From: Candidatus Saccharimonadales bacterium
GTDB lineage: Bacteria > Patescibacteriota > Saccharimonadia > Saccharimonadales > UBA4665
Assembly: GCA_036383395.1 (NCBI GenBank)
Contig: DASVOI010000014.1
Coordinates: forward strand, 329-64,328
DNA: 64,000 nt
Direction of reading: 5' to 3'
The notes under the pieces were generated by a model. It was not told where the DNA came from and made no database searches. It saw only the letters and a list, made by a program, of their open reading frames with translations. Below are positions 24,001 through 50,946 of the stretch, one piece after another. The first letter of the stretch is position 1, and every line of letters begins with the position of its first letter. A program made the position numbers and the translations under genes.

Positions 24001-25584
24001 CGCCTGGTTGTACGCCGCGCCCTCAATGATGCGGAAAATACGGACGCGCTTCCATAGCCCACGCAGCGGCAGACGAGCGTCGGCGAGCGTCTCTTCTTCG
24101 ATTACGCCATTTGTTTCAACAAACAGCGGCAGCCGGCGCAGTTTGCTAATAAGAGTGGGGGCGATCATGAATGGTTCTTGGCGAACGTAGAGGATGCCAT
24201 TGCGCCGTGCGCGGCTAAAGGCATAGAGCGCAGCGAACAGTTTTGCCTGATAAATGATCGGAGCGATAGACTTTAGCATAGTTGACATGCGCACGCGGCG
24301 GAACCCGAAGGCGGTGTCCGCCTGCTGAGCAAGCAAGGGTGCGAACAATGTAACGTCCCGGCCTTGGGCCTGGAGATTTTGACAGACTTCATAGACATGA
24401 ATAGAGGGCGCCAAGCTGTTGTCGATGGCAAAATTAGCAGCGTACGCCACTGGCCGCGCCATCGCTTGTGCAAATAGGGCGTCGGTTTTGCGGGCGCTTG
24501 TTTCCCAAGTCAGGGTTTCCTGCACCCGTTCGTAGCCGGCTTCGCCCAGCTTGGACAAGCTGCTGCTTCGTAGCGCCTTGGTTATGGCTTTAGCCAGCGT
24601 GCGGGGTTTGCCCGGTGCCGTTAACAGCCCGTCCACACCGTCGCGTATCAGGGTGCCGAGCGCACCAATGTTGGCGCCCAACACAGGAGTTTTACAGGCC
24701 CACGCCTCTGGGAGTACTGTGGGAAAGGCGTCGTTGGCCGTCGTGGGGTATGCAACCAGAAGCGCGGCTGACTGGATGAGCTTGTATTTCGCCCCGCCCT
24801 CTACGAAGCCATGGAATGTCACGTTTTTCTCGAGTCCCAGCTCCGCGACACGGGCTTCGTAGCGTGTCCGTGCGTTGCCGTCTCCCAAAACGTGGAGTTC
24901 TACTTTTGGTTCGCCCCTTTTGGATAGACGCACCGCTTCCAGCAGCTCATCGAGACCTTTCCAGGAATGGCTACGGTCCAGGCTGCCCACGAAGACAAGC
25001 CGTTTGCTGTGGCGTTTAGGCTTGTCGGCCGGTATGTCTGCCGGATCAATGGCGTTATAAACAACGGCCGCTTTGGCCTGCGCAATTTTGGGCAATTGTT
25101 CCTTCACGTATTCGGAAACGGCAATTACCTTGGTCGCGCGGCGGAATGTGCGCTTTTGTACCGCTTCGGTTGCGCGCGTCAGCAGGCCCATGGCGGTCGA
25201 GCCTTTTTTGCGCAGCGTGGCGGCATGATATGTCACCACCGTAGGGATTTTCCCGGCGGCACGAACAGCAACGTCCGCCAGGCCGGGGACCGGAGCGTGA
25301 GCATTAATAAGGTCGGGTTGTTCGGCGCGGATCAATCGTTTTAGTTGGAAATACCACATGGGGTGGAACGGTGTGTTGGAGATCCGGCCCAGAATTGGCA
25401 GGCGGACGACCCGGAGGCCTTCTACCGTTTCGTGCTTTGTGCCTTTGCTGTCGTGGTTGGTGGTGACGACAACCACATCATCGCCATTAGCCTGAAGCTG
25501 CTTGGCCAGCTGTAGCGCGTAGTTTTCCAGGCCGCCGATTTTCGGGGCGAAGTACGGCGTTACAAACATGACTTTGCGGCTCAT
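21067..25584 (-). CDS. GT4-GT4-DUF2206-like multi-TM fusion protein (1505 aa)
   Basis: Two GT-B units (YFAPKIGGLE...WKGL...AFPTVLPEAW; FVGHL...SPFKVYEYLACG) followed by about 13 TM helices with LIGYDIHQEF, RQEIA and VVSHYST. Confidence 0.8.
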   Translation of the reverse strand: MSRKVMFVTPYFAPKIGGLENYALQLAKQLQANGDDVVVVTTNHDSKGTKHETVEGLRVVRLPILGRISNTPFHPMWYFQLKRLIRAEQPDLINAHAPVPGLADVAVRAAGKIPTVVTYHAATLRKKGSTAMGLLTRATEAVQKRTFRRATKVIAVSEYVKEQLPKIAQAKAAVVYNAIDPADIPADKPKRHSKRLVFVGSLDRSHSWKGLDELLEAVRLSKRGEPKVELHVLGDGNARTRYEARVAELGLEKNVTFHGFVEGGAKYKLIQSAALLVAYPTTANDAFPTVLPEAWACKTPVLGANIGALGTLIRDGVDGLLTAPGKPRTLAKAITKALRSSSLSKLGEAGYERVQETLTWETSARKTDALFAQAMARPVAYAANFAIDNSLAPSIHVYEVCQNLQAQGRDVTLFAPLLAQQADTAFGFRRVRMSTMLKSIAPIIYQAKLFAALYAFSRARRNGILYVRQEPFMIAPTLISKLRRLPLFVETNGVIEEETLADARLPLRGLWKRVRIFRIIEGAAYNQAQHIFTVTDGLKRHLMRKYRLPRNKITVVENGVNTSTLRPMQINRSTDELRIGFVGHLTSWEGMAYAVTAMKQIVRQLPNAKMIIAGDGEQLPELQKMAASLGLERNVEFLGSIDHSQVPAFLNSCDVCLAYYTKERAGLNSPFKVYEYLACGRAVVVSDIAGLSDHFKGVVVAAKPENSADLAKKLIALLNNKTRRDELGAAGLAYIRAGHTWQSVAASINGQLDKFTAVRSHKRSTNLPGWVLALLGGSLLTQFVLQSTPLAVGLHLLNFGLLFGTLVAAQLKRSRGFRLMEWLGLSVGLSLLGLLGLGWALNTVGIIAGWHTLSAGPVVVVFYAAEIVLLARAWARGAVLPRVIVPTLSRHWRIAVPLAFPPLAAFGAERLNNHAGGALAIGTLIIMLVWQIYLVALRRRPTGGEIAASLWGISAGLLLSVSLRSNHLIGYDIHQEFQVFTATLQQGIWQANAIHNTYNACLSITVLPTVLAHLLHVPAEYVFKLAMQLFAAVVPLLVYKVTRGFKAASPKAAFVAALFFALQFQFVLQFPALIRQEIAFVFFCLIFAVAAIDALPVRTRKLLIVAFGMGMVVSHYSTSIVGLSMLAAAALTVYAAPKVWPRLRGRAGQGTLGIVLRPAVIGSLLLFGVIWYAPLTNAPTVLAYKASTALHHLSRASELLHSSERSTFVTNTFSFTHKGSGDFSIATLQQQNLAPDAYSQHIYQQYPTIPVKERGATATSTAGKGLLAASRLAVPLLVKLVFLVGVGVLVLRAWRGDLSIELGALAAAGAVMLLTLTAVPFLSDKYNLDRLYQQLLVVLAVAPVLGTQALLRKKSSWAWPAIVALVLAYGASTTGLVNQLGFGAGDINLSNNNETYNRYYTNDADISAVNWLQSHKNPNAVVNYDRYTRLNAYAYSTMSTDKAIPSILPGRVTPGGYAFRSSVNTETGTAYNKYNDTAAGFAYPAGFLDNYKSTIYSGGGTVIYK

Positions 25585-26159: not shown

Positions 26160-28457
26160 TTACTGCATTTGAACGAATAGGTTGGTGCCGGCGGTACCAT
26201 TTGCCGCGTTGCCGCCCGTGCCGCAGCCTGCTGCGCCAAGGCCTCCGGCCAGATTTAGCACGCCGCTATTGATTACCGGATTAACGCTGTAAACAAGTAC
26301 GGCACCCCCTCCACCTCCTCCGCCTCCGCCGCAGTTCCCGACAGTTGGTGCAAAGCCGTTGCCGCCCCTGGCGGTTAGTACGCCAGTGTTTATAAAGGTC
26401 CGGGCGAAGATAATGATAAGTGCTCCGCCTGAGCCGCCTGCCCCGCCTTTGTTGGTGCCGTCACCACCTCCGCCCGAGCCGCCCGAGCCGCCGCTGACCA
26501 CAAATGTTGCTGCGGCAAATCCGACCGCACCTGAGAGGCATGCTTGTGCATTGCGCAGCATCCAGTTCACGCTGGATCGCGGCGATTGTTGCGCGCCTCC
26601 GGCCCCTGCCGCGCCGTTGCCGCCAGCACCACCCCGACCTACGCCAAACCCACCGATATTACCTTGGCTGCCTGCCGCCGTATTACCTGCTCCGCCCAAT
26701 TGACCGCCGCCCAGCGCGCTTTGCGTGGTTGCCGGTGTGGCGACTGAGCCGGTAGCATCGTTACCATTAGCGTCGATGGTGCCACTATTGGTGATGGTGC
26801 CTGTAGAATAGAGGCGGAAGCTGCTGCACCGTAGCGTAATACCCGACGATATGGTGAGCGATGTAACGAGTGCGTCACGGGTCATCGTATACGTGGAGCC
26901 TGCTAGCGACGCCCACTGCACTGTAGTGGTGCCGTCCAGGGCGGCTGCGCCGTCGCTGCCGTCGCCGAAGGTGCCAAGGGCGAAGGTGCCATGGGGCGCG
27001 TTAGTGTTTATCCACATGCCACTGCTAGCATTGTAGGCAATCGTCTGCCCGTCACTAAGCGTGCCGAGCTGCATGTCGCTCAGGTTGGCCAGCGTATTAC
27101 CCGGATTGCGCTGGATGCCGTTAGCGTGTATGCCGTTGGCAAGCAGCACGGAGTCCGCCGAAATGTCGCCGAGCATGGTGTACCCTGTTTGGGCAGAAGT
27201 AGTGAAGCGGATATCGTTGCCATCTGATCCTCCGGCTAGGCGCAAGCCGTAACCCTGATTGCCTATCAGATTGCCCGATTGATACCCTTGCAGCGCCGTA
27301 AAGTCTATAACACAGTGCGATGCGTTCCAAAGTTCAACGGCGGCGTATTGTCCGGCAGCATTCCCTTGCCCGTGATTATTGCTGTCGGCCACGCAGCTCT
27401 GCAGGATACTGCCGTTTGTGTTGTGTAGGTAAAACCCCTGGGCAAAGTTATTCTGAGCGGTACAGCTACTAAGTAATGCGTAAGCGAATGAATTCTCAAT
27501 GCGAAAGCCGGCCCCGCGCGAAGCGTCTACTTTCCCGCTGTCCCAGGCCTTGCAGTTGCTGAGCATAATGTCGCCGTTATCAAGGTAAAAACCCTCCAGT
27601 CCGGCATTCTCCGAACTGCAGTTAACTATGAAAGTGTCGTAGGTGGTATTAAAACTGTTGCCCCAGCACCCCGAAACATACACATTTTCGAAGCGCATTT
27701 CGCTGCGGCCGGAAGCATTGATGCCATCGTCATGGCAGTAACGAACGCGGACGTTTTTAACATGCTGATGCGTATCGAACCAGGCATCATTGGCGGCGCC
27801 CGTATTGGTTGGATTGGTGTTAAATTTAATGCCGTGTGAGGTTGCGCTTTGCCCGCTGCGGTTTCCGTCGATAGTCAGGTCCCATACACCCACGAATTCG
27901 CCGTTCGCCCCGATGCCGTCGCTGCTTACATGATTGGTGACGACACTTTTATTGGCGTTGCTATTCATCGTAATGACAGTGGCATACATGCCCGCTCCTT
28001 GCAGCACTACCCCGTCGTAGAGCACCAGGCCGGTTACGCGCGTCAGGCCGCGTGGCACATACACAATACCCCCGCTGCCGCCGGCTACAGCGGTGCTGTT
28101 ATATGCGGCATTAATGGCGGCTTGGATTGCCGTGGTGTCATCGCTGGAGCCGTCGATTTTGGCGCCATAGTCGCGTACATCATACACGATCTGTCGTGTT
28201 GACCACTGTTCCCATTGTGCCGAAACGGCGCCGCCGCTGAAGGCAGAACTGGAAACGTGCGCTGCCTTGCAGCGCCAACTGGCACCATCATATGAGACGA
28301 TGTCGTTGACGCTATAGACAGTATCGACAGACCAAACACCGCGTGCGGTAATGCCAGACCGCAAACTGCCGTCTTCATTGTGTGCTACTCTGAGAAACTC
28401 ATTTAAAATGCTTCCCCAGTTATTGTTGTCGCCGCCAGGCGTCGGAAGACGAGACAT
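26160..28457 (-). CDS. Tailspike-like surface protein: CBM5/12-like module, pectate-lyase-3 cap, right-handed beta-helix and Gly-rich C-terminal domain
   Basis: MSRLPTPGGDNNNWGSILNEFL N-terminus; WSVDTVYSVNDIVSYDGASWRC; YDVRDYGAKIDGSSDDTTAIQAAINAA; beta-helix repeats; GGGGGGGG tail. Start 28457 follows GAGGAGG. Confidence 0.8.
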   Translation of the reverse strand: MSRLPTPGGDNNNWGSILNEFLRVAHNEDGSLRSGITARGVWSVDTVYSVNDIVSYDGASWRCKAAHVSSSAFSGGAVSAQWEQWSTRQIVYDVRDYGAKIDGSSDDTTAIQAAINAAYNSTAVAGGSGGIVYVPRGLTRVTGLVLYDGVVLQGAGMYATVITMNSNANKSVVTNHVSSDGIGANGEFVGVWDLTIDGNRSGQSATSHGIKFNTNPTNTGAANDAWFDTHQHVKNVRVRYCHDDGINASGRSEMRFENVYVSGCWGNSFNTTYDTFIVNCSSENAGLEGFYLDNGDIMLSNCKAWDSGKVDASRGAGFRIENSFAYALLSSCTAQNNFAQGFYLHNTNGSILQSCVADSNNHGQGNAAGQYAAVELWNASHCVIDFTALQGYQSGNLIGNQGYGLRLAGGSDGNDIRFTTSAQTGYTMLGDISADSVLLANGIHANGIQRNPGNTLANLSDMQLGTLSDGQTIAYNASSGMWINTNAPHGTFALGTFGDGSDGAAALDGTTTVQWASLAGSTYTMTRDALVTSLTISSGITLRCSSFRLYSTGTITNSGTIDANGNDATGSVATPATTQSALGGGQLGGAGNTAAGSQGNIGGFGVGRGGAGGNGAAGAGGAQQSPRSSVNWMLRNAQACLSGAVGFAAATFVVSGGSGGSGGGGDGTNKGGAGGSGGALIIIFARTFINTGVLTARGGNGFAPTVGNCGGGGGGGGGAVLVYSVNPVINSGVLNLAGGLGAAGCGTGGNAANGTAGTNLFVQMQ

Positions 28458-28718
28458 ACGTTTAATAGACCCCTCCTCGAGGGTTCGTCTGTTTTTTACC
28501 GGCCCGACAGAGCATACGCGCAAGTCGTTCGAGCTTCAAGGCAAAACAAACAACACCCATCCCTATCAGTGGTTGTAATATTTACTTTGAATCAGTGGAT
28601 TGTATATTTTATATATTTTTGCCGGGACCACCCCAATAACTTGCACGCCGCTAACGTGAGCAATTATTCCCCTTTTCTCTTATGCTTATGACTAAGCATT
28701 ATAGCAATTTTAGGATCA

Positions 28719-33635: not shown

Positions 33636-34832
33636 TTATTTTTTGGCGCAGGTCGGGCAGATTTCGGCGTCGGATTCGCCCTTGCTGCGAATCCACTGGG
33701 CGCCGGCGGCCGGCCAGTTCTGCAGATCGTGGAAGCCAATGAGATCGACAAATACATGGATGAATCCGCCGAGCATGCCAGCGAAGGTTGCCTTGCCCCA
33801 CTCTACTGCGGCCCAGCGCGGCCCGACCGGAATAACGGAAATAGGCTTCTTGGGTGTGTAACTCTTGGGCGTCTTGCCGTCCAGCTTGCGGCAGATGTTT
33901 TGGGCCACGAATTCGGCATCGTACAGTGCAGTTTGGGCCATGCCGCTAAACGGTGTGTTGGCGTTGTCGCCCACGATGAAAATGTCTTGCTCGGTTTGCA
34001 GGTATTCATCGACTTCGACTTTGCCGCGGTCGGTCAGGCGGAAGTTATTCTCTTTAAAAAACGGGTTATTGGTTACGCCGGCCGTCCAGACAACGGTGCG
34101 GGTCTTGAGCGGCTTGTCGCCAGCCATGAGCATGTCGCCGGTTTGGCCGCCAACGGCGGTGCCAGTCATAACTTGGACGCCCAGATGGGTTAAGCGGCGC
34201 ATCACCGCTTGCTGGATGCTTTGCGGCGAGCGCGGCAGTAGCACCGGCGCCGCTTCTACGAGCATGATGTTCAGCTTGGTCTTGGGTACCCCGTGGCGTT
34301 TCATTACGCCGTTCAGATAACCTGGCAGCGCGCCGGCTAGTTCGATGCCGGTCGGGCCGCCGCCCACAATGACGTAGTTGAGATCGGGCGCGCCCTCTTT
34401 GGCGAATTGCTCGTGCACGTGCTTTTTGAAGCGCTCAACTTCCTCGGTCGACTTTATGCCGAAGGAGTACTCGGCCAGGCCCTTGATGCCGAAGTAGTTG
34501 GTGACATTACCCAGCCCCAAAATGAGCGTGTCGTACGGCAAGTGCTTGCCGTCTTCGGTGACAATTTCTTTTTTCTGACGGTCCACTTTGGTGACGGTGG
34601 CCCGTTCAAAGTGCACCTTGCGCCCTTCGAGAATAGTGCTCAACCGGATGCGCGAGCCGGCGCGCCGGCCGCCGGTAGCGGCGTGGTACAGCCCCGGATA
34701 GTACCGGAAATGGCCATGATCGCTCACCAGCGTGACGTCGCAGCTGTCGCAGCGGCTTAGCTCTAGCGCAGCTTTTACGCCGCCAAAGCCACCGCCCACG
34801 ATCAATATTTTTGTTTTTTGGGTTGTGCTCAT
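33636..34832 (-). CDS. ndh: Type II NADH:quinone oxidoreductase (NDH-2)-family flavoprotein
   Basis: VGGGFGG, IVGGGPTGIELAG, VWTAGV, VGD and MAQTA; ends with a CPTC motif. Confidence 0.85.
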   Translation of the reverse strand: MSTTQKTKILIVGGGFGGVKAALELSRCDSCDVTLVSDHGHFRYYPGLYHAATGGRRAGSRIRLSTILEGRKVHFERATVTKVDRQKKEIVTEDGKHLPYDTLILGLGNVTNYFGIKGLAEYSFGIKSTEEVERFKKHVHEQFAKEGAPDLNYVIVGGGPTGIELAGALPGYLNGVMKRHGVPKTKLNIMLVEAAPVLLPRSPQSIQQAVMRRLTHLGVQVMTGTAVGGQTGDMLMAGDKPLKTRTVVWTAGVTNNPFFKENNFRLTDRGKVEVDEYLQTEQDIFIVGDNANTPFSGMAQTALYDAEFVAQNICRKLDGKTPKSYTPKKPISVIPVGPRWAAVEWGKATFAGMLGGFIHVFVDLIGFHDLQNWPAAGAQWIRSKGESDAEICPTCAKK

Positions 34833-34871
34833 GGTTCGCATTATACAGCAAGCTTTCGGTGGAGCTAGTGC

Positions 34872-35887: not shown

Positions 35888-36874
35888 ATGAGTGTGCGCG
35901 TCGCCACATATAACCTCTTTGAAGGGGCTGGAGGGTCTTATAACCGCCTCGTCGAGTTCGTGCGGACATCCCAGCTGGATGTGATTTGTTTGCAAGAAAT
36001 TAACGGCTGGGAGGACAACGATTTCGCCCGCCTCAAAGATTTTACCGACAAGGTCTTGTTCGTGGGCTTTGCCTACGGCAACAGCAATACCGAATATAAA
36101 CTGGCGACCGTCAGCAAGCACGCCATTATCGACCGCAAGCTGCACGCCGAGGCCTTTTGGCACGCTGCCCTCGAAATTAAGGTGCGGCTGGGCGATCGCG
36201 ATGTAACCATCGTGAACGCCCATCTCGACCCGTGGAAAGAGGAATCGCGCGACCGCGAGATTGCTCGCCTGCTGTCCGGTTTGCAGCCTGGCCAGCCTAC
36301 GATCATCACCGGCGACTTCAACAGCCTGAGCCGCCAAGATAATTACCCGCCGGAGCTGCTCGCCCAGCTGCAAGCCAAAGGCATCAGCAAATTTGGCACG
36401 CAATCGCTGGAGCTCAGGGTGATCGATCGCCTGCTGGCTGCCGGCTATGTTGACGTGTTTGCGGCCGCCGGCCAATTCCAGCCCACGGTGCCGAGCGCCT
36501 TCAATCAGGACAAGGATCACGAGGTGCCAGTGCGCGTTGACTACATGTTTGTGTCGCCTGATTTGGCGCCGCTGGTGAGCAAGGTTGAACTCGCCAAGAC
36601 CGACTTGACCGACGCCATCTCCGATCATTACCCGCTGATCGTTACGTTTAACTTGGGCGAACCCGAGACCGGCACGAGTCCGACTAGTGCGGCGCCCGCC
36701 CCGGTGATGCCGCCGGCGCCCGTCCCTGCTCCTGTCGCGCCCAGCATTCCGGCCGCGCCCCCTACGCCGTGGGTGCCGCCAGAAGACCCGAAGCCGCAAG
36801 AACGGCCGCCAAAAAATGACGACAAACCCGATGATGGCGAAGTTGTTATGTGGTCTCACGACGACAAAAAATAA
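35888..36874 (+). CDS. Endonuclease/exonuclease/phosphatase (EEP) family protein with Pro-rich tail
   Basis: TYNL, CLQE, AHL, TGDFN, RVDYMF and SDHYP. Confidence 0.9.
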   Translation: MSVRVATYNLFEGAGGSYNRLVEFVRTSQLDVICLQEINGWEDNDFARLKDFTDKVLFVGFAYGNSNTEYKLATVSKHAIIDRKLHAEAFWHAALEIKVRLGDRDVTIVNAHLDPWKEESRDREIARLLSGLQPGQPTIITGDFNSLSRQDNYPPELLAQLQAKGISKFGTQSLELRVIDRLLAAGYVDVFAAAGQFQPTVPSAFNQDKDHEVPVRVDYMFVSPDLAPLVSKVELAKTDLTDAISDHYPLIVTFNLGEPETGTSPTSAAPAPVMPPAPVPAPVAPSIPAAPPTPWVPPEDPKPQERPPKNDDKPDDGEVVMWSHDDKK

Positions 36875-36938
36875 AAATCTTAAAAAATGGTAATGAAATC
36901 TATATTTACTTCGGCCAGGTAGTGGTAGAATATACCGC

Positions 36939-38144
36939 ATGGCTAAAGATCTGACCCAGTTGCAGATTCGTTCTCTGCCTGAGGTCTTTAACTTTACCGA
37001 TGGTCATGTTCATAGGTCTCTTGATGAAAACGAGCGTAAGGTGGCGGAACGACTCAGTGACATCTTCCTCAGTGTAGAGCGTGAACGCCAATCGGAAGTA
37101 GAGCGTGCATACGTGGACGCTTTTTATGGCATGTACCGCCAAACTATCAATGCTGACAAGACCAAGTACTTATTCCTATCGAGCGCTTCGCTCAGCCTCG
37201 AGGTAACCGCCAACTATGTCCGTATGGCTGGCCTGGATCTGGCGCTGATTGAGCCGTGCTTTGACAATCTCGCCAATATGTTTAAGCGCCACAAAGTGCC
37301 GTTGGAATCCTTGCCTGACCACTACCTTGAGGCCGAAAATATCGACGAGCTGTTGCCGACTATCAAGAGCAAGGCCATATGTATTGTGTCGCCCAACAAT
37401 CCTACCGGCATTACTTACACGCCAGAAATTTTTAAAAAGTTGGTTGACTTCTGCAAGCGTGAGCACCGCCTGCTGATCATCGACTCGTCGTTCCGCGCCT
37501 ACAAAGACCCCGACTTCATCTTCGACGAATATGGGCTGTTGCAAGAAAGCGGCATCGATTATATCCTCATCGAAGACACCGGTAAGACCTGGCCGACGAA
37601 AGAGCTAAAAGTATCGTTGCTGGCCGTTTCCAGCAACATTTACAAGGATGTGTTCGACATCTACACCGATTTTTTGTATCACCACTCCACCGTCGTAGTG
37701 CGGTTTTTAACAGAATTTATTAAAGTGTCGGCCGCCGACAACCTGAAGACCGCGAAAGGCGTAGTCGCCACCAACCGGCGTGCGCTGTACCAGGCACTCG
37801 AGGGCAGCTTCCTGACGCCGCGCGAAAAAGGCTTTACGAGTGTTGCCTGGCTCAAGATCACGAACGGCATGAGGGCCGATGCCCTTTGCGCACTTCTAAA
37901 AGCAAACGGTATTTTTGTGCTGCCCGGCCAGCATTTTTACTGGAATGGCGGCACCGACCAAGACGGTAATGGCGGCGATTGTTACATTCGCGTCGCCCTG
38001 GCCCGCGACACCGACAAATTCAACCGCGCTCTGGTGCGGCTTAAAGAGGTCTTTGCCCAGGTGGCCGAGCCCGAGCCGGCCGAGTTAGGGAGTGCGCGCC
38101 AGTTCCCAGTAGTGGGTGAACATTTGGCGGAAGGTCTGAGCTAG
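36939..38144 (+). CDS. Fold-type I PLP enzyme, MppP/RohP/Ind4-like arginine oxidase homolog
   Basis: LTQ..., N.TDGH, PCFDNLA, PNNPTG, DSSFR, IEDTGKTWPTKELK (PLP Lys), LPGQHFYW and IRVALAR align with the remembered MppP sequence. Confidence 0.78.
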   Translation: MAKDLTQLQIRSLPEVFNFTDGHVHRSLDENERKVAERLSDIFLSVERERQSEVERAYVDAFYGMYRQTINADKTKYLFLSSASLSLEVTANYVRMAGLDLALIEPCFDNLANMFKRHKVPLESLPDHYLEAENIDELLPTIKSKAICIVSPNNPTGITYTPEIFKKLVDFCKREHRLLIIDSSFRAYKDPDFIFDEYGLLQESGIDYILIEDTGKTWPTKELKVSLLAVSSNIYKDVFDIYTDFLYHHSTVVVRFLTEFIKVSAADNLKTAKGVVATNRRALYQALEGSFLTPREKGFTSVAWLKITNGMRADALCALLKANGIFVLPGQHFYWNGGTDQDGNGGDCYIRVALARDTDKFNRALVRLKEVFAQVAEPEPAELGSARQFPVVGEHLAEGLS

Positions 38145-38858
38145 CGTTTCGTTCACGATTTCGACGCCGACCTTTTGCTGGTGGCGCCAATGGTAGATGG
38201 CAACGGTATCGTTATAGGTGGTGATCTGATTTTCGAGCAGCAGCTCGTCCGGCGTGAGCACGCGGAACTGATAGTTTGTGGCAAACGTGAAGATTTTGCT
38301 GTCCTCGCCGGGGTTTACCAGTACGCGCACCGATTGGTCGTTGTAGTTGGCTTGCGCCATGCGTTCTTGGTGTTGGCTAATCCAGCGCTGGCTGGTAATG
38401 AGGTCGCGCAAACTGGCGCGGCCAAACATCAGGATTTCGCCGCGAGTTTTTAGCTCGTGCCACAGCATTTGCTTGAACCCTTCTTCGCCTTCGTAGGTAT
38501 GCACAATAAAACTGCTGGCGTCATTGTCTTTTAGTAGATTTAACACCGGCAGCAGGCTTTCAAAGGCCTGGCGCTTTTGTTTGACGTTCTCTTCTTCGGT
38601 CACTAGCTCTACCTCAAGCGTGGCCGGATCGGAGGCGATCAGAAATGTACCGCGGTCGTCAGTGCGAGTACTCACCAGGCTGCGTTTTTCCAGCTGGTCG
38701 GCCAATCGGTACACTTTACTGCGATTAATGCCGGTGGAACGCGCCAGTTTTAGGTGCGTTGCCGGGCCTTTTAGTAGCTCGAGATAGATATGCGCTTCGT
38801 CGGCGCTTAAATTCAAGGCCTTCAGTCGCTGCAAGATCATGTCCTTGTTGTTCGTCAT
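38085..38858 (-). CDS. TrmB-family HTH transcriptional regulator with C-terminal effector-binding (PLD-like) domain
   Basis: EAHIYLELL...LARSTGINRSKVYRLADQLEKRSLV, YEGEEG and ITTYNDTVAI. Confidence 0.85.
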   Translation of the reverse strand: MTNNKDMILQRLKALNLSADEAHIYLELLKGPATHLKLARSTGINRSKVYRLADQLEKRSLVSTRTDDRGTFLIASDPATLEVELVTEEENVKQKRQAFESLLPVLNLLKDNDASSFIVHTYEGEEGFKQMLWHELKTRGEILMFGRASLRDLITSQRWISQHQERMAQANYNDQSVRVLVNPGEDSKIFTFATNYQFRVLTPDELLLENQITTYNDTVAIYHWRHQQKVGVEIVNETLAQTFRQMFTHYWELARTP

Positions 38859-38954
38859 GGTGAACAATTTAGCACATTATGTTCCGTTCATAAATACTGA
38901 ACATGTAAACACATTAAAAGCTAAGTCATTAAATAACGGTCTCGGGAGGCCCTT

Positions 38955-39230
38955 ATGAGGAACGTAGAAGTCATGGAAGTGCGAGCGATGCTCAAGGAAA
39001 TTTTGGCAACTACGGGTGGGACGCCCGAAGATGTGAGCGCCGTTATGACCATCGGGACGCCGGCAATGGGATTGCAGCGTTTGAGCGGCCCGAAGGAGCT
39101 TGCGCCGGTGCTGAAGGCGGTTGAACACGCCTCGCCGGCCAGCGAAGGTACCATTCGTATTGAAGAGGGTACCTGGCGCCAACTGGAGTCGGCCTACAGC
39201 CGCAGCGTGGTGGAGCCGCTGTTCGCCTAA
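38955..39230 (+). CDS. Hypothetical protein
   Basis: 91 aa; SD GGGAGG; followed by a terminator. Confidence 0.55.
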   Translation: MRNVEVMEVRAMLKEILATTGGTPEDVSAVMTIGTPAMGLQRLSGPKELAPVLKAVEHASPASEGTIRIEEGTWRQLESAYSRSVVEPLFA

Positions 39231-39253: not shown

Positions 39254-39290
39254 AAATCACGGGCCCATGACTGGCCCGTGATTTTGTTTT
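39254..39290 (+). terminator. Intrinsic terminator
   Basis: AAATCACGGGCC-7 nt-GGCCCGTGATTT followed by TGTTTT. Confidence 0.8.
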
Positions 39291-39320: not shown

Positions 39321-40328
39321 ATGAAAGTTTCGTTTTCTGAAGTTGTCCGTAAATACAAAGAAGTACTGGCCACATCCGGTGCGAGCCAGGAAGACATTGA
39401 CGCCGTGGCGACGCTGAATTTAGAGCAAGATCTGCACCACAATTTTTTTTCTGGGCTGGACGAAGTAAATTTGGCACTGGACACGCTGCGCGAATCGAAA
39501 GGCAAGAAACACAAGGTCGAGGTAGACAAGCCGGCTCTGAAACTAGTGAATTGTAACGGCCGCGATGAGGGCCTGGTGAGCTTGGAGCTTATCCCCCTGC
39601 TCTGCGATATGGCGCGCGGGCAAGGTATTGCTATTATTGGCCTCTACAACGGTGGCTATCAGAGTATGCCCGAGGTATTTGCCCGGCTAATTGCCGCCGA
39701 GGACTTGGTTGGACTGGTCTCTGGCACGGGCGGCCCACAAAGCGTGGTGCCCTACGGCGGCAAAAAAGATATTATGGGCACGAACCCATTTGCCTACGGC
39801 ATCCCCACTAACGACATGCCTATTGTCTTCGACGCAGCGACCGCCAAGTACCCCTGGGGCAGTATCCGCATCGCCGGTGAACGCGGTGACACGTTGCCGG
39901 AACGTTCATATCTGGACAAAGAGGGCAACTGGACCACCGACCCGTCCGTGGCTGTGGCGATCGTTCCTTTTGGCGAACATCGTGGCTACGCCATAAATCT
40001 GTTGCTGGAAGTGATGGCCGGCGCGCTCGTGCGTGCTAAGTCCGGTTTGCTGCAAAAAGAAGAGGCCGACATGGGCGGCTTCCTCATTGCGATTGACCCG
40101 GCCGCCTTTGGGCCGCTCGACGACTTTAAAGCGCAAACCACCAAACTGGCCCAAGACATTGAGGCCGTGGAGCCGGCCGAGGGCTTCAGCGAAGTGCGCG
40201 TGCCCGGCTACAAGGGCCAGCGCTACAAGCAGCATGTGCTCGAAACGGACGAAATCGAAATCGAAGACCGCGTCTGGCAAAAGTTTGAAGCGGTATATAA
40301 AGAATTAGTTAAAAAGGATGGTAACTAA
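39321..40328 (+). CDS. Ldh_2 (type 2 malate/L-lactate dehydrogenase; AllD/DpkA/ComC-like) oxidoreductase, divergent
   Basis: PYGG....GTNPFAYGIP, FDAAT, GYAINLLLEVMAG, IAIDP and VRVPG; SD AAGGAG. Confidence 0.85.
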   Translation: MKVSFSEVVRKYKEVLATSGASQEDIDAVATLNLEQDLHHNFFSGLDEVNLALDTLRESKGKKHKVEVDKPALKLVNCNGRDEGLVSLELIPLLCDMARGQGIAIIGLYNGGYQSMPEVFARLIAAEDLVGLVSGTGGPQSVVPYGGKKDIMGTNPFAYGIPTNDMPIVFDAATAKYPWGSIRIAGERGDTLPERSYLDKEGNWTTDPSVAVAIVPFGEHRGYAINLLLEVMAGALVRAKSGLLQKEEADMGGFLIAIDPAAFGPLDDFKAQTTKLAQDIEAVEPAEGFSEVRVPGYKGQRYKQHVLETDEIEIEDRVWQKFEAVYKELVKKDGN

Positions 40329-40801
40329 TGGGCACTTTCGATAAACACCTACTGGCCGACACTATCGCCCGCACCGAATTTGTTATAGACGACGGTCCGT
40401 ACGTGCTGGCTAGCTTGCCGCTCGACGAGTACGCCAAGGCCGCCCGGCTCATAGCCGAAGCGAGCGACCCGTATATGCAAATTATCCGCGACAGTTCTGA
40501 GGTGTCGGTCATCGTGACCCAGGCAACCTGGGAAGCGGTGTTTGTGCCGGCGTTTGGCGAGCGGCCTATGTTGGCCCCTCTTTCTGAGGTTTTTTGCAAG
40601 GTTGACGAAACCTGCACCGGCTACTTGCTGACCATTCTGGACCGGCTGTCGCCGAATAATGTTGGGGTGTATGTGCAGGGCGCCTATGTCACCGACCACA
40701 TATTCATCCACAGCGAGGATACCGAAAAAGCCAAGCAGCTGCTAGCCGATCTTCAGGCCGATATGCGCGATGCTCTTGCACACACACCAGAGAATGCTTA
40801 A
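40328..40801 (+). CDS. Tandem-ACT domain protein (CASTOR/ACT_7-like)
   Basis: QIIRDSSEVSVI and GYLLTILDRL..NNVGVYVQGAYVTDHIFI...D.EKA match the ACT_7 pattern; TAATG coupling to the Ldh_2 gene. Confidence 0.65.
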   Translation: MGTFDKHLLADTIARTEFVIDDGPYVLASLPLDEYAKAARLIAEASDPYMQIIRDSSEVSVIVTQATWEAVFVPAFGERPMLAPLSEVFCKVDETCTGYLLTILDRLSPNNVGVYVQGAYVTDHIFIHSEDTEKAKQLLADLQADMRDALAHTPENA

Positions 40802-40810
40802 GCTTAAAGC

Positions 40811-42475
40811 ATGGATGATTTTAAGCAGCAGTTAGCCGCTGCCGGGTTTAGCGGCGAGATCGATGACAGCGCCGAAACGACCCAGTTTTACAGCCACGAC
40901 GCTTCCCTGTTCGAGGTGGTGCCGCAGCTGGTGGTGATGCCCAAAACCAGCGCCGACGTGCAAAAGCTCATTAAGCTAGTGGCCGACCACAAAAAGCACA
41001 TGCCCGGGTTGTCGGTTACGGCGCGCTCAGCCGGCACCGACATGTCCGGCGGCGCGGTTAACGATAGCGTCATTGTTGATTTCAACAAGCACTTCACCAA
41101 AATTGAAAACGTGACTTCTACCGAAGCCCACGCCCAGCCCGGTGTGTTTTACCGCGACTTTGAAGCAGAAACGCTAAAGCACGACGCGCTGATGCCGAGC
41201 TATCCGGCGTCGCGCGATCTCTGTACCATCGGCGGCATGGTCAACAACAACTCCGGCGGCGAGAAATCGTTAGAATACGGCAAGACCGAAAATTTTGTGA
41301 AGGAACTAAAGGTCGTGTTCGCCGATGGCAACGAATATACCGTTAAGCCCTTAAACCGCCGCGAGCTGGTGGCCAAAATGGGGCAAAAGACGTTTGAGGG
41401 CCAGCTGTACAAGCGACTGTTTGAGCTGTGCGAAAAACATTATGACAAGATTAAGGCCGCCAAGCCGAACGTGTCCAAAAACTCTATGGGCTACAATCTG
41501 TGGGACGTCTGGGACCGCGACAGCGGCGTGTTTAACATGGAGAAATTGATTGTGGGCAGCCAGGGCACGCTGGGCTTTACTACCGACATCAAGTTTAAGC
41601 TGGTGCCGCACCGTCCGCACTCCGGCTTGCTGGTGCTGTTTTTGCGCGATATCGACGCGTTGGGCCAGATTATCCCCAGGGTGCTCGAGTACAAGCCGGC
41701 GACCATGGAATGCTTCGACGACGCTACGCTGTTGCTGACGATCAGGTTTATGCCGTACTTCCTCAAAATGCTTGGGCTCAAAAAGTTCATTCACCTGCTG
41801 TTTAGCTTGATACCTGACGGCTTCCAGCTGCTGCGCGGTATCCCCAAAATGATTCTGATGGTAGAGTTCAACGGCCAAACCGAAGACGAAGTGCGCGAGC
41901 AGATTAAAGCGCTGCACCGCGACCTAAAGCAGTACCACGCCCGCTACGAAATTAACGGATTCGAAGAAGACGCCACTGAAGGTAAAAGCGAGAAGTTTTG
42001 GATTATGCGCCGCCACGCCTTCAACTTGCTGCGCAAAAAAGTCAAAGACAAGCACACCGCGCCGTTCATCGACGATCTGGTGGTGAACCCCGAGTATCTG
42101 ACCGAATTTCTGCCCCGCTTGCGCAAGATCGTGAAGAAGTACAAGCTGCTGGCCACCATTCAGGGCCACATGGGCGACGGCAACTTCCACATCATTCCAC
42201 TCATGAAGATCGAGGAGAAAAAGGAGCGCGCCAAGCTGCTGCCGGCTATGAAAGAGGTGGATACGCTGGTTTTGAAGTACAAAGGTTCGCTGAGCGGCGA
42301 GCACAACGACGGTCTGGTCCGCGGGCCATGGCTAGAGGAGCAGTTCGGCCGCGAAGTGCTTGGCTATTTCAAAGAGGTGAAGCACATTTTTGACCCGGAA
42401 AATATCTTTAACCCGCACAAAAAGTCTGACGCCGACTGGGACTACAGCTTTTCGCACATTCGCGAGCACTTTTAG
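40811..42475 (+). CDS. FAD-linked oxidoreductase (D-lactate dehydrogenase/GlcD, VAO/PCMH family)
   Basis: RSAGTDMSG, TIGGMVNNNSGG, GSQGTLG, GHMGDGNFH, SGEHNDG and DPENIFNP; own promoter TTGCAC-17-TAAGCT (40776-40804). Confidence 0.9.
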   Translation: MDDFKQQLAAAGFSGEIDDSAETTQFYSHDASLFEVVPQLVVMPKTSADVQKLIKLVADHKKHMPGLSVTARSAGTDMSGGAVNDSVIVDFNKHFTKIENVTSTEAHAQPGVFYRDFEAETLKHDALMPSYPASRDLCTIGGMVNNNSGGEKSLEYGKTENFVKELKVVFADGNEYTVKPLNRRELVAKMGQKTFEGQLYKRLFELCEKHYDKIKAAKPNVSKNSMGYNLWDVWDRDSGVFNMEKLIVGSQGTLGFTTDIKFKLVPHRPHSGLLVLFLRDIDALGQIIPRVLEYKPATMECFDDATLLLTIRFMPYFLKMLGLKKFIHLLFSLIPDGFQLLRGIPKMILMVEFNGQTEDEVREQIKALHRDLKQYHARYEINGFEEDATEGKSEKFWIMRRHAFNLLRKKVKDKHTAPFIDDLVVNPEYLTEFLPRLRKIVKKYKLLATIQGHMGDGNFHIIPLMKIEEKKERAKLLPAMKEVDTLVLKYKGSLSGEHNDGLVRGPWLEEQFGREVLGYFKEVKHIFDPENIFNPHKKSDADWDYSFSHIREHF

Positions 42476-47265: not shown

Positions 47266-47377
47266 CGGCCCGGGAGCGTTTCAGATTCATTTAACATCGC
47301 TGCATTAGGGTAGGATTGTCCGCCGGGACAGTTAAGCGGTGTACAATAAAGAGGGTCACTTTCCTTTTGGTAGCGTT

Positions 47378-48046
47378 ATGCGCGATATTATTACCTACCT
47401 GACACCACATTCGACCAAACGCGTTTTTAAACGACATGCTATTTTGCTATATCAAGGCGAGGTGCCGCGTACGGCGTACGTTGTACTAAAAGGCGTGGTC
47501 AAAGTGTATAGCATCAACGCGGCCGGCGAGGAGCAGATTGCCACTTTCGAAACGCCGGGTGATATATTTCCGGTGCCGTGGATTTTCCATAAAGCCACTC
47601 ATACGCTGTACTACTGCGAGGCGCTCAGCGATTGCGAGGTGCTTGCACTGTCGCGCGAGGAGCTGCTGTTGCAGCTCAATACCACTCCCGAATTGCAGCA
47701 ATCGGTTTTGAATTATTTTGTAAATCGCTACACCGGCCTGCTGATGCGCATCACCGCGCTGGAGCAGTCGCGGGCACGAGAGAAAATCATGTTCACGCTC
47801 TACTATCTGTTGTTCCGCTATGGACGCGAAGTCAAACCCGGCATGTATGTGGTCAGTATTAAGCTCACGCACAGCGTTATTGCCGGCTTGGTGGGGCTAA
47901 CGCGCGAAACCACCACCAACGAGCTCACCAAACTCAAGGCCGAAAAAGTGTTGCGCTACAGCACGCACCAATACGCCATCGACAAGAGCAAACTCGAGCG
48001 GCTGCTGGGCGAAGACAGCTTCGACAATATCGAACTGGCGCGGTAA
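47378..48046 (+). CDS. Crp/Fnr-family transcriptional regulator
   Basis: cNMP-binding beta-roll (LKGVVKVY..NAAGEEQI...PGDIFP) and HTH LTHSVIAGLVGLTRETTT. Confidence 0.93.
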   Translation: MRDIITYLTPHSTKRVFKRHAILLYQGEVPRTAYVVLKGVVKVYSINAAGEEQIATFETPGDIFPVPWIFHKATHTLYYCEALSDCEVLALSREELLLQLNTTPELQQSVLNYFVNRYTGLLMRITALEQSRAREKIMFTLYYLLFRYGREVKPGMYVVSIKLTHSVIAGLVGLTRETTTNELTKLKAEKVLRYSTHQYAIDKSKLERLLGEDSFDNIELAR

Positions 48047-48634: not shown

Positions 48635-48729
48635 AGGCGTTGCATAACGCGCTATAATGCAGCTATGACCGCTATTGCTGTAATATCTTTGACTGTTTCG
48701 CGGGAATGCTGAGGCCATACTTGTCGCAA

Positions 48730-50946
48730 ATGGGAGACACGCGAGGCACTGCACACAAACGTTCTTTTGTTATTGTATCTAATCGCCTGCCGGTTAACGT
48801 GACCAAGGAGAATGGTAAGCTGAGCTTTAACCCGAGCAGCGGCGGTTTGGCTACGGCTATGTCTTCGGCGGCTATGGGACGTGAGCACATCTGGCTGGGC
48901 TGGCCGGGTATAGCGTCGGATGACCTGACGGCGGCCGACAAGCGGCTCATTACCCGCGAGCTGCGCAAATACGACTGCGCGCCGGTGTTTTTGAGCAAGA
49001 AGCAAATCGCGGGCTACTACGACGGCTACGCCAACGCCACCATTTGGCCGCTGTTCCACTATTTTCAGAATCACGCCGTGTACCAGTCGACCTACTGGGA
49101 GCCGTACAAAGAAGTAAGCCGGGTGTTTGCGCGCGCCGTGCAGCGGCATGCCGCGCCGGACGCCACCATTTGGGTGCACGACTATCACTTTATGCTGTTG
49201 CCGCGCATGCTGCGCAAGGAGCTGCCAGAAAGCAGTATTGGTTTTTTCTTGCATATCCCCTTCCCGTCGTACGAAATTTTCCGGGTGCTGCCGCAGCGCG
49301 CCGAGATTTTGCGCGGCCTGCTGGGCGCCGACCTGGTCGGCTTCCATACCTACGATTACACTCGTCATTTTATGAGCAGCGTGCTGCACGTGCTGGGGTA
49401 CGAGACCAAGTTGGGGCTGGTACAGACCAACACGCGCGAGATTATGGCCGACGCCTTCCCAATAGGCATCGACTACGACAAATTCGTGCGTGCGCTGAGT
49501 GACCCGGCCGTGCAAGAAGAGACCGAACGGCTGCGCGAACACTACGAGGGCAAGAAGCTGATTATATCGGTGGACCGGCTGGATTACTCCAAGGGGATTG
49601 TCGGCCGGCTGGAAGCGTTCGACCAGTTTTTGGAGCGCCGGCCGAAATACCACGGCAAGGTGTCGCTGGTGGTTGTGGCCGTGCCGTCGCGCATCGATGT
49701 CGACGCTTACAAGCAACTGCGCGATACCATCGAACTCACTGTGAGCCGCATTAACGGCAAGTATGCGACCATGGCGTGGTCGCCTATATCGTATCAATTT
49801 AAGAATTTGCCGTTTGAACAGATTGTGGCTTTGTATGTTGCCGCTGATGTGGCGCTGGTAACGCCCTTGCGCGACGGCATGAATCTGGTTTCTAAAGAGT
49901 ATGTTGCCAGCAAGCAGAAACGGCCGGGCGTGCTCATTTTGAGCGAAATGGCAGGCGCGGCCAACGAACTGCCAGAGGCAATCCGGGTGAATCCGTATGA
50001 TGGCGCTGACATCGGGCGGGCACTCGAAACGGCGCTCAAGATGCCGGTTGCGCAGCAGCGGCGGGCCATGCAGGCGATGCAGGCGCGGATCTCACGCTAT
50101 TCGGTGACGCGCTGGGCGCAAGACTTTATCGAGCAACTCGGCCGTGCCAAGGCGGCAACCGCCAGCATGAATGCCCAGCCGCTTAGCGGCGACGCCCAGC
50201 GCGAGCTTATGAACGCATATAAGTCCACCAAAAAACGGCTGTTTTTGCTTGACTACGACGGCACCCTGCGCGACTATGTGTCTCCCGTCTCCAAAGACCA
50301 GGCGCGCCCTGGCCGGCGGTTACTGGGAAAATTGGCGGCGCTGTCGGCCGACCCTAAAAACCATATCTGCATCATTAGCGGCCGCACCCGCAGCACCTTG
50401 CAGAGTTGGTTTGGCTCGTTGCCGGTAACTCTGGTGGCCGAGCACGGCGCCTGGGTACGCAAAAAGGGCGAATGGCACCACGCCCAAGTCGACTTCCAAA
50501 AAGTAAAAGACATCTTGCTGCCAATCCTCACCGGCTACGCCGAGCGCACGCCCGGGACCACGGTAGAAGAAAAAGACTTTGCCCTGGTGTGGCACTACCG
50601 CGGTGTGACGCCCGAGCTGGCCTACGTGCGCAAGGTGGGCTTAAAACACGACATCACCGTGGCATTATCAGGCAAAGATGCCGATGTTGGCGTATTTGAG
50701 GGCAACAAGATTTTGGAAATAAAGCCGCGCTCTATTAGCAAGGGCGGCATCGCTAAGGAATTACTCGACCAGACGGACGCTGATTTTGTGCTATCCGCCG
50801 GCGACGATTATACCGACGAAGATATGTTTACCGCCCTGCCCTCTACGGCGTGGACTCTCAAGGTTGGGCCGGGCAACACAAGCGCACGCAATCATATCGG
50901 CTCGGTAGAGGAGATGATTGCGCTGCTTGGCCGCTTGTATTCGTAG
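48730..50946 (+). CDS. Bifunctional trehalose-6-phosphate synthase/phosphatase (OtsA-OtsB fusion)
   Basis: VSNRLP, WVHDYH, FLHIPFP, DRLDYSKG and LRDGMNLV; HAD motifs DYDGTL and GDDYTDEDMF; exact start uncertain (48706-48730). Confidence 0.95.
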   Translation: MGDTRGTAHKRSFVIVSNRLPVNVTKENGKLSFNPSSGGLATAMSSAAMGREHIWLGWPGIASDDLTAADKRLITRELRKYDCAPVFLSKKQIAGYYDGYANATIWPLFHYFQNHAVYQSTYWEPYKEVSRVFARAVQRHAAPDATIWVHDYHFMLLPRMLRKELPESSIGFFLHIPFPSYEIFRVLPQRAEILRGLLGADLVGFHTYDYTRHFMSSVLHVLGYETKLGLVQTNTREIMADAFPIGIDYDKFVRALSDPAVQEETERLREHYEGKKLIISVDRLDYSKGIVGRLEAFDQFLERRPKYHGKVSLVVVAVPSRIDVDAYKQLRDTIELTVSRINGKYATMAWSPISYQFKNLPFEQIVALYVAADVALVTPLRDGMNLVSKEYVASKQKRPGVLILSEMAGAANELPEAIRVNPYDGADIGRALETALKMPVAQQRRAMQAMQARISRYSVTRWAQDFIEQLGRAKAATASMNAQPLSGDAQRELMNAYKSTKKRLFLLDYDGTLRDYVSPVSKDQARPGRRLLGKLAALSADPKNHICIISGRTRSTLQSWFGSLPVTLVAEHGAWVRKKGEWHHAQVDFQKVKDILLPILTGYAERTPGTTVEEKDFALVWHYRGVTPELAYVRKVGLKHDITVALSGKDADVGVFEGNKILEIKPRSISKGGIAKELLDQTDADFVLSAGDDYTDEDMFTALPSTAWTLKVGPGNTSARNHIGSVEEMIALLGRLYS

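Follow-up and report, generated by a model that had tools for sequence, protein, structure and literature searches.

An orphan homolog of the O2- and PLP-dependent arginine oxidases in a soil Saccharimonadales genome carries glutamine at a product-determining position

The biochemically characterised O2- and pyridoxal 5′-phosphate (PLP)-dependent arginine oxidases named in the literature consulted all come from antibiotic or other natural-product pathways. What would such an enzyme do elsewhere? The question is raised by contig DASVOI010000014.1 of a Candidatus Saccharimonadales bacterium, of which a stretch of 64,000 nt (the window) was analysed. On its plus strand, at 36939..38144 and from an ATG start, the window encodes a 401-aa homolog of the MppP/RohP/Plu4 family, an intact and selected family member in a genome-reduced bacterium of the Candidate Phyla Radiation (CPR), without such a pathway beside it. 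Within the literature searchable, our search found no paper linking CPR organisms with the arginine oxidase family. From its homology, fold, residue conservation, selection, distribution and context, we find that the protein is a phylogenetically distinct addition to a known enzyme family, with an unusual host, an orphan context and a substitution at a product-determining residue. Taken whole, the explanation that we favour, with moderate confidence, is an O2-dependent L-arginine oxidase encoded by an accessory orphan gene, whose product would be mainly 2-keto (or imino/dehydro) arginine.

Family membership from sequence and predicted fold

The original prediction assigned this gene to the MppP/RohP/Ind4/Plu4 family, and phmmer, NCBIfam, Foldseek and an exhaustive database scan all bear the assignment out. 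Searched with phmmer against PDB sequences, the protein matches RohP (6c3a) at 1.1e-67, Plu4 (7n79) at 2e-50 and MppP (5dj1) at 2e-43, in each case at full length, versus 5e-9 for the best ordinary aminotransferase, an E-value gap to the best match of about 59 orders of magnitude. Clustering with ordinary class I/II aminotransferases, the outcome against which the prediction had proposed a comparison by hidden Markov models (HMMs), is thus not seen. The likeness to MppP claimed along the whole length is confirmed by an alignment of query residues 3-371 to MppP residues 9-372; residues 382-401 form a low-confidence, non-conserved C-terminal tail. Identity is 35% to RohP, 30% to Plu4 and 27% to MppP, and because this matches the 30-34% that the three references share with one another, the protein can be regarded as a peer-level member of the family. 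The top NCBIfam model is likewise TIGR04462 (endura_MppP; 2.6e-41, 142 bits).

Structure comparison gives the same picture. The AlphaFold (AF2) model has a predicted local distance difference test score (pLDDT) of 91.5 and a predicted template modelling score (pTM) of 0.89. With this model as a Foldseek query against the PDB, the top 23 matches are all RohP, Plu4 or MppP (template modelling (TM) score 0.90-0.93, root-mean-square deviation about 2 Å), and the next fold class follows at E 6e-18, after a gap of about 14 orders of magnitude. The entry names describe RohP as an O2-, PLP-dependent L-arginine hydroxylase, Plu4 as a desaturase and MppP as a hydroxylase. In an exhaustive scan of 1.84 billion representative proteins, no more than 655 reached E <= 1e-3, of which 266 reached E <= 1e-30; with so few matches in so large a set, the arginine oxidase family is small and sharply bounded. 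Together, the sequence and model comparisons support membership of the product of 36939..38144 in the O2-, PLP-dependent arginine oxidase family (MppP, RohP, MilM, Ind4, Plu4), whose fold is that of the fold-type I PLP enzymes (class I/II aminotransferase-like).

Eight of the nine motifs listed in the original prediction stand at their expected places: LTQ at residue 5, DGH at 21, SSASLSLE at 81, PCFDNLA at 106, PNNPTG at 152, DSSFR at 182, IEDTGKTWPTKELK at 211 and RVALAR at 351. The ninth, given as LP..FYW, was wrong by one residue, the actual sequence being LPGQHFYW (LP...FYW).

A conserved active site with glutamine in the lid helix

The residue sets compared are those of the MilM preprint (10.64898/2026.02.25.707955), with the corresponding positions in MppP and RohP. 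Of 12 residues mapped from MppP and MilM, the window protein keeps 11. In MppP numbering, Thr12 corresponds to Thr6, His29 to His23, Ser91 to Ser84, Phe115 to Phe108, Asn117 to Asn110, Asn160 to Asn154, Asp188 to Asp182, Asp218 to Asp213, Lys221 to Lys216, Lys229 to Lys224 and Arg352 to Arg351; the sole exception is Glu15, which is Gln9. The PLP ligands (Ser84, Phe108, Asn154, Asp182) are therefore all present. Lys216, the Schiff-base and catalytic lysine (codon 37584..37586, plus strand; RohP Lys235, MilM Lys232), is accompanied by the second lysine, Lys224. Both are invariant among homologs, the Lys216 position in 120/120 close homologs and in 134/134 diverse representatives. His23 (codon 37005..37007, plus strand) is the histidine of the DGH motif, strictly conserved among arginine oxidases, and its MilM equivalent, His31, has been proposed to activate the water attacking C4 (10.64898/2026.02.25.707955). 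Arg351 (codon 37989..37991, plus strand) is the alpha-carboxylate-binding arginine equivalent to MilM Arg364, and MilM R364A is inactive (10.64898/2026.02.25.707955).

The exception lies in the N-terminal lid helix, assigned by DSSP on the AF2 model to residues 5-12 (LTQLQIRS; 36951..36974, plus strand), which holds both Thr6 and Gln9. A Gln at the MppP Glu15 position (LTQLQ versus LTQWE) had been read from the sequence before, correctly: the HMMER alignments pair Thr12 with Thr6 and Glu15 with Gln9 (codon CAG, 36963..36965, plus strand), and also align Gln9 with RohP Glu40 and the equivalent Glu of Plu4; in MilM the position is Glu17. The eight closest homologs (56-69% identity) all have Gln, and Glu is present in all 110 other close homologs and in all three references. 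Of 134 diverse representatives, 121 have Glu at the position, 6 have Gln, the window protein among them, and 1 has Ala; with about 5% of diverse members carrying it, Gln appears to be tolerated by the family. As judged from the alignments, Gln at this lid-helix position is a recurrent natural state that has arisen repeatedly. The only changes specific to the sub-clade are Gln9, Arg11 and Phe19 (from Leu19), all on or next to the lid helix, and Gln9 is the only one of these at an otherwise invariant column.

In two homologs, mutation at this position changes the product. MilM E17A makes the 2-oxo product exclusively, with a turnover 1.9-fold faster (10.64898/2026.02.25.707955), and MppP E15A, whose structure is PDB 5bk7 by entry title, reportedly behaves in parallel, with no C4 hydroxylation and 2-ketoarginine only (as cited in the MilM preprint, 10.64898/2026.02.25.707955). 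The Glu required for a hydroxylated product in the hydroxylase subgroup is thus replaced by Gln9 in the window protein.

Host, distribution and selection

The host is indeed a CPR bacterium, as had been suspected from the sequence. The best named matches of the window's AtpD are Saccharimonadales or Patescibacteria (84-90% identity), and more than 15 kb of the window is syntenic with Saccharimonadales metagenome-assembled genomes (MAGs) and with contigs of 1.2-1.3 Mb. The source is a soil metagenome, and partial matches were found in other soil and groundwater runs.

When one genome per species was scanned, 193 genomes proved to encode a relative. In a neighbour-joining tree, midpoint-rooted, built without bootstrap or outgroup and including neither Ind4 nor MilM, the Saccharimonadales sequences form a clade of their own, together with one MAG labelled Parcubacteria. 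This clade lies inside a mostly environmental group, apart from RohP, MppP and Plu4. A second, unrelated CPR lineage (L021, L026, L037, L038 and L067, from Peribacteria, Andersenbacteria and other Patescibacteria) adjoins the RohP clade.

Among carriers in the Saccharimonadales clade the gene order is helicase, NDH-2-like, BrkB, EEP, oxidase, TrmB (minus strand), a 91-aa open reading frame (ORF), variable genes and a flavin adenine dinucleotide (FAD)-linked oxidase. Neighbourhoods on the contigs carrying P0002 and P0005 covered 10 kb on either side. Three relatives (L086-L088; 1.0-1.1 Mb) keep the FAD-linked oxidase and the NDH-2-like gene with neither the arginine oxidase homolog nor a remnant of it between them, which makes the latter an accessory gene whose slot is variable. 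Among the carriers, the oxidase homolog follows the same divergence order as the neighbouring genes, at a faster pace (50-68% identity versus 72-88% for the FAD-linked oxidase). Its GC content, noted earlier as lower than that of the atp genes, is indeed reduced, to a modest degree (0.525 versus a mean of 0.576 for 32 window genes, z = -2.1; third-position GC, z = -1.4). As the orthologs in relatives dip likewise against their own loci, the low GC belongs to the gene throughout the clade and does not indicate recent transfer. Recent horizontal transfer is ruled out by the shared syntenic slot, the neighbour-like divergence order and this clade-wide dip; on such comparative evidence the gene is inherited vertically within the soil Saccharimonadales lineage.

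The ratio of nonsynonymous to synonymous substitution rates (dN/dS) is about 0.13 against the two closest orthologs, with dS saturated. Contigs of four other metagenomes, whose cover of the gene is fragmentary, hold just three in-gene variants, and 3/3 are synonymous third-position changes. Since, in addition, the ORF is intact and a promoter element upstream of it is conserved (see below), the gene is under purifying selection and appears to be functional.

In one close Saccharimonadales relative without the oxidase homolog (L086, on a 1.12-Mb contig), a COX1-4 haem-copper oxidase operon (15597..19535) lies about 5 kb from the syntenic FAD-oxidase gene, which, judged by gene content, indicates aerobic respiration in the soil lineage.

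Partner genes across the family

The absence of mppQ/mppR, roh and ind genes, seen when the gene was first read, is confirmed and extends beyond the window. Pfam scans, which covered nearly all window ORFs of at least 200 aa, revealed no second aminotransferase, DHDPS aldolase or DUF6190 protein, and no MppQ-, MppR-, RohQ/R/S- or Ind-like gene was found in the window. The same holds for six other CPR-clade loci, where neither a DUF6190/DHDPS aldolase pair nor MppQ/MppR accompanies the oxidase homolog. There is also no 2-Hacid_dh gene, the presumed Ind5/Pel5-type partner, beside it in the window, just a non-conserved Ldh_2 gene 1.2 kb away beyond a terminator.

Elsewhere in the family, an aldolase, hydratase or reductase gene neighbours the oxidase in most of the lineages sampled. 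RohP-type loci from actinomycetes, cyanobacteria and other CPR bacteria (Peribacteria, Andersenbacteria) carry a DHDPS-family aldolase, usually with DUF6190, and the environmental relatives have HMGL-like, FAA-hydrolase, PF10014 or TauD/GBBH-like genes as neighbours. No conserved aldolase, 2-Hacid_dh, HMGL-like, FAA-hydrolase, PF10014 or TauD/GBBH-like neighbour was found in the Saccharimonadales clade loci. Over 85 loci, a DHDPS aldolase stands beside 44/75 Glu-bearing genes versus 0/10 Gln-bearing genes (Fisher p = 3.6e-4, uncorrected for phylogeny). The Gln-bearing genes instead neighbour an HMGL-like gene (often with FAA-hydrolase and TauD), an Ldh_2 gene (L089, 12 nt downstream) or nothing recognisable. 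A simple rule that Gln means no partner does not hold, given four Gln-bearing relatives with an HMGL-like gene and an orphan CPR clade that mostly has Glu.

Several of these neighbourhoods are of interest in their own right. The four Gln-bearing relatives (L016, Pandoraea nosoerga; L018, Streptomyces; L019, Nocardia; L025, Yinghuangia) have the oxidase translationally coupled to the HMGL-like gene, which could be of the 4-hydroxy-2-oxovalerate-aldolase or the homocitrate-synthase type. All four also carry a gene for a GBBH/TauD-like dioxygenase, and L018, L019 and L025 one for an FAA-hydrolase, the whole forming a conserved cluster. At L090 (346..5834) a Gln-bearing homolog has as its flanking genes one of the OCD/mu-crystallin family and one for an extra arginyl-tRNA synthetase, an arrangement that, by analogy, resembles a self-resistance gene in an arginine-analogue antibiotic cluster. 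The second CPR lineage (L021, L026, L037, L038, L067) and cyanobacterial loci L022, L023, L049 and L078 have a DHDPS-family aldolase directly downstream, with DUF6190 in L021, L026 and L038. The three-gene cassette of oxidase, DUF6190 and DHDPS is found in about 36 actinomycete loci, including that of S. eurocidicus, which we take to be an azomycin producer. By analogy, the RohP-like cassette suggests that some CPR bacteria and cyanobacteria have a pathway of the 2-aminoimidazole type. Finally, an 849-aa ORF in a Gemmatimonadaceae MAG (L013, 9302..11851) has the oxidase in frame with an apparent PF10014 (2OG-Fe_Oxy_2) dioxygenase, a C-terminal assignment inferred from BLAST clustering and not from a domain scan. 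In L011 and L015 (Vicinamibacterales, Chthonomonadaceae) the oxidase and PF10014 genes are overlapping neighbours, followed by an FAA-hydrolase gene. The L013 fusion looks like a Rosetta-stone pointer to an arginine-derived pathway.

Proposed chemistry and its alternatives

The substrate, the O2 dependence, the product and the role of the window protein are what we infer from characterised homologs. L-Arginine would be bound as an external aldimine on Lys216, which would then deprotonate C-alpha to give a quinonoid, and reaction of the quinonoid with O2 would release H2O2. The main products would be 2-ketoarginine, NH3 and H2O2, possibly with a four-electron imino or dehydro product. (S)-4-Hydroxy-2-ketoarginine would not be expected as the main product, because Gln9 takes the place of the Glu on which C4 hydroxylation by MppP and MilM depends. 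The keto acid may then be decarboxylated non-enzymatically by the co-produced H2O2 to 4-guanidinobutyrate, a fate of keto acids reported for MilM (10.64898/2026.02.25.707955), or alternatively be reduced by the nearby, non-conserved Ldh_2-family reductase. O2 is plausible in this setting, with a soil source, an adjacent NDH-2-like gene and a COX1-4 operon in one relative. Since characterised family members turn over only about 4-6 times per minute, bulk arginine catabolism and O2 scavenging are argued against, unless this clade is much faster. The outcome of hydroxylation versus desaturation is thought to depend on dynamics, and for that reason the product call is kept as a hypothesis.

A number of observations weigh against this explanation. 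The score of 142 bits is set against a 450-bit equivalog cutoff for TIGR04462, and by sequence the protein is not an MppP equivalog; nor does its clade in the neighbour-joining tree, drawn without bootstrap or outgroup, contain a characterised enzyme. Gln is not Ala and is still able to hydrogen-bond, so hydroxylation might survive the substitution. Of the 33 CPR-clade sequences, 25 keep Glu and are equally orphan, and Gln therefore does not explain the missing partner. The association between Gln and the lack of a DHDPS aldolase comes from only about five independent origins of Gln, with no phylogenetic correction. In L016, L018, L019 and L025 the HMGL-like gene immediately downstream could process a 4-hydroxy-2-oxo acid.

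Several of these points bear on a credible, if somewhat unlikely, possibility that the protein is a full hydroxylase like MppP, RohP and MilM, in which Gln9 functionally replaces Glu and the (S)-4-hydroxy-2-ketoarginine is used elsewhere in the genome or by the host bacterium. His23, Thr6 and Asn110, the other residues required for hydroxylation by MilM, are all kept; Glu is found in most of the CPR clade and in all sampled non-CPR relatives of the larger clade except L016, L018, L019 and L025; and these four have the HMGL-like gene, three of them with an FAA-hydrolase, that could handle the hydroxylated acid. On the other side, Glu-to-Ala replacement at the Glu15 site abolishes hydroxylation in two members (MilM, and MppP as reported), no aldolase or cyclase lies within the 64-kb window, and the RohQ/RohR-like cassette never occurs at Gln-bearing loci. 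We regard as decidedly unlikely an oxidase-reductase pair like Ind4/Ind5, in which the oxidase would release a 2-imino/2-oxo or 4,5-dehydro product and the Ldh_2 protein would use NAD(P)H to reduce that product to D-arginine, a dehydro-arginine or 2-hydroxy-5-guanidinovalerate. Such pairs have precedent: Ind5 is the imine reductase partner of Ind4 (PMC8246080), a 2-Hacid_dh gene lies directly downstream of the oxidase in Paenibacillus-type loci, and independent Gln-bearing homologs are accompanied in L089 by an Ldh_2 gene 12 nt downstream and in L090 by a nearby OCD/mu-crystallin gene. Moreover, Ldh_2 stands 1.2 kb from the oxidase homolog in both the window and L006, and an Ldh_2-derived 91-aa ORF is found in every CPR-clade locus. 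Yet the closest relatives (L001, L002, L004, L007) lack full-length Ldh_2, an opposite-strand gene and a strong terminator separate it from the oxidase homolog, and in the oxidase-less L086 it stands beside the FAD-linked oxidase, so that it may belong to a separate 2-hydroxyacid module.

A change of substrate, with Gln9 and Arg11 retuning the pocket for a neutral or different side chain (citrulline, canavanine or homoarginine), is very improbable. It would agree with the confinement of the sub-clade-specific changes (Gln9, Arg11, Phe19) to the lid helix and its edge, but Asp213, Asp244, Thr6, Asn110 and Arg351 have not changed, L-arginine remains a substrate of MilM E17A, and MilM is strictly specific for L-arginine (10.64898/2026.02.25.707955). 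The most conservative reading, an ordinary aminotransferase or a decaying gene that merely resembles MppP, follows the database annotation (aspartate/methionine/tyrosine aminotransferase) and the Pfam result, in which Aminotran_1_2 (1.2e-14) is the only domain seen. It is disfavoured, and we consider it extremely improbable, in view of the gaps of about 59 orders of magnitude by sequence and about 14 by structure and the retention of the family-specific Thr6, His23 (both in or beside the lid helix) and Phe185 (MppP Phe191); decay is countered by the intact ORF, the dN/dS of about 0.13 and the synonymous nature of every variant seen.

Beyond the O2-dependent L-arginine oxidase that we favour, a bolder version is conceivable but unlikely: Gln would mark a retuned class of PLP arginine oxidases without C4 hydroxylation, and the soil Saccharimonadales would have a stand-alone L-arginine oxidase, transcribed without a leader, whose 2-keto/imino product is reduced by Ldh_2 or decarboxylated by the enzyme's own H2O2. 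If this is true, the Ldh_2 pairing would be an Ind4/Ind5-like arrangement reinvented with a different fold, and an ultrasmall epibiont would gain an O2-dependent arginine modification, or the release of ammonia and peroxide, at the host interface.

Transcription and neighbouring genes

An extended -10 promoter-like element, TGgTAGAAT (36923..36931, plus strand), was read from the sequence and ends 7 nt before the ATG of the oxidase homolog; no Shine-Dalgarno sequence or ribosome-binding site lies between the two. Six Saccharimonadales loci share the motif TGnTA(G/A)AAT 6-7 nt before the ATG, whereas the remaining spacer shows no such conservation. A generic promoter scan did not flag the element, because the spacer to the candidate -35 hexamer is 15 nt. 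Together, these sequence features suggest that the gene has its own promoter and a probably leaderless, monocistronic mRNA. The gene 65 nt upstream on the same strand encodes an Exo_endo_phos-family protein with a Pro-rich tail (35888..36874). It is present in L001, L002, L004 and L006 and was not found in L009, L086, L087 and L088; the contig of L007 ends too near the gene to tell. The variable slot is bordered on this side by the core gene for the NDH-2-like Pyr_redox_2 flavoprotein, assigned by Pfam (33636..34841, minus strand).

Downstream, a 260-aa TrmB-family helix-turn-helix regulator (38085..38867, minus strand; Pfam TrmB 3e-9) is convergent with the oxidase homolog and overlaps its 3′ end by 60 nt. 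The trmB gene adjoins the oxidase in 7/7 CPR-clade loci, and an ortholog of 56% identity occurs in L086 without it. In the divergent spacer between TrmB and the 91-aa ORF, TGAACA/GTTCA repeats (38861..38903), the first of which overlaps the trmB start codon, lie in a block of about 48 nt that is nearly invariant in six loci. They are absent upstream of the oxidase gene and occur in this spacer alone. By position and conservation, the repeat block is probably a TrmB operator. TrmB as a dedicated regulator of the oxidase was considered and is not supported: the genes are convergent, the repeats lie on the other side of TrmB, and the L086 ortholog has no oxidase to regulate.

The 91-aa ORF (38955..39230, plus strand) has a GGGAGG ribosome-binding site and is conserved, at 91-97 aa, in all seven CPR-clade loci. 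It has no Pfam or NCBIfam match and aligns to both ends of Ldh_2, N-terminally at residues 3-32 (47% identity) and C-terminally at residues 266-330; its dN/dS is about 0.1. It looks like an internally deleted relic of Ldh_2 that has been kept as a small protein under selection. A bidirectional terminator-like hairpin with a 12-bp stem (39254..39284) separates it from the 335-aa Ldh_2 protein itself (39321..40328, plus strand; Pfam Ldh_2 1.3e-62), a member of the NAD(P)-dependent 2-hydroxyacid/2-oxoacid oxidoreductases whose NCBIfam matches all fall below cutoffs. Full-length Ldh_2 is found in the CPR clade only in the window and, on the opposite strand, in L006, and also in the oxidase-less L086. 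Start-stop coupled to it is a gene for a 157-aa protein (40328..40801, plus strand) with an ACT_7 score of 26 bits, below the cutoff of 27. These two genes (39321..40801) form a variable insert, in place of which L002 has Methyltransf_3 and L001, L004 and L007 have nothing. The slot closes with the 554-aa FAD-linked oxidase (40811..42475, plus strand), which is similar to GlcD and to the N-terminal half of YdiJ (D-2-hydroxyacid dehydrogenase type) and shows 75-93% identity across the 120 matches listed. We rejected it as a functional partner, since it is a core gene that keeps the same locus in L086-L088 without the arginine oxidase homolog or a remnant.

Elsewhere in the window, a large glycosyltransferase island (13913..25584) includes a 626-aa GT2-GT4 fusion and a 1505-aa protein that joins two GT4 modules to a DUF2206 membrane domain. 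After it comes a 787-aa beta-helix protein with a CBM_5_12 domain (26160..28523). A fused trehalose-6-phosphate synthase/phosphatase (48706..50946; Glyco_transf_20 and Trehalose_PPase, 746 aa) is present in this reduced genome, with a gene for a Crp-family regulator just upstream (47339..48046).

Significance

For enzymologists, the natural Glu-to-Gln substitution and the lack of any co-occurrence of Gln with a RohQ/RohR-like cassette amount to a natural experiment on product control. For CPR biology, the gene offers a candidate O2-dependent arginine route in environmental Saccharibacteria. The known arginine route of mammal-associated Saccharibacteria is the arginine deiminase system, which is reported to be common among them and has been interpreted as gained in the move from environmental to mammalian habitats (PMC8764695).

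Comparison with known systems

The best match among characterised systems is RohP of azomycin biosynthesis in Streptomyces cattleya (PDB 6C3A-6C3D; close homolog MilM of mildiomycin biosynthesis), at 1.1e-67, 35% identity and a TM score of 0.92. In its fold and predicted lid helix, as in the catalytic Lys and His and the ligands of PLP and of the carboxylate, the window protein agrees with RohP. They differ in that RohP has Glu40 and the window protein Gln9, that RohP-type genes lie in a cassette with DUF6190 and a DHDPS-family aldolase, absent at the window gene, and that the two belong to different clades. MppP of enduracididine biosynthesis in Streptomyces wadayamensis (PDB 5DJ1; TIGR04462) aligns at full length with 27% identity and a TM score of about 0.92. 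The mapped active-site residues of MppP are identical to those of the window protein but for one (Glu15 versus Gln9), and the window gene is without MppQ/MppR neighbours. Plu4 and Ind4 are indolmycin-type arginine desaturases (PDB 7N79; Plu4 E 2e-50, 30% identity, TM score 0.91) that are proposed to share the early mechanistic steps with the rest of the family. They release didehydroarginine, which is trapped by the partner imine reductase Ind5/Pel5 (PMC8246080), whereas no reductase gene is adjacent to the window gene. In Paenibacillus-type loci the 2-Hacid_dh gene directly downstream fits an Ind5/Pel5 imine reductase (PMC8246080), as a candidate Pel5 only.

The nearest non-CPR clade consists of relatives at 40-45% identity from Dehalococcoidia, Vicinamibacterales, Chthonomonadaceae, Gemmatimonadaceae, Pandoraea, Nocardia and some Streptomyces. 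Most of these are flanked by HMGL-like, FAA-hydrolase, PF10014 or TauD/GBBH-like genes, in contrast to the Saccharimonadales clade, which has none of them, and it is the subgroup of Pandoraea, Streptomyces, Nocardia and Yinghuangia that shares Gln with the window protein.

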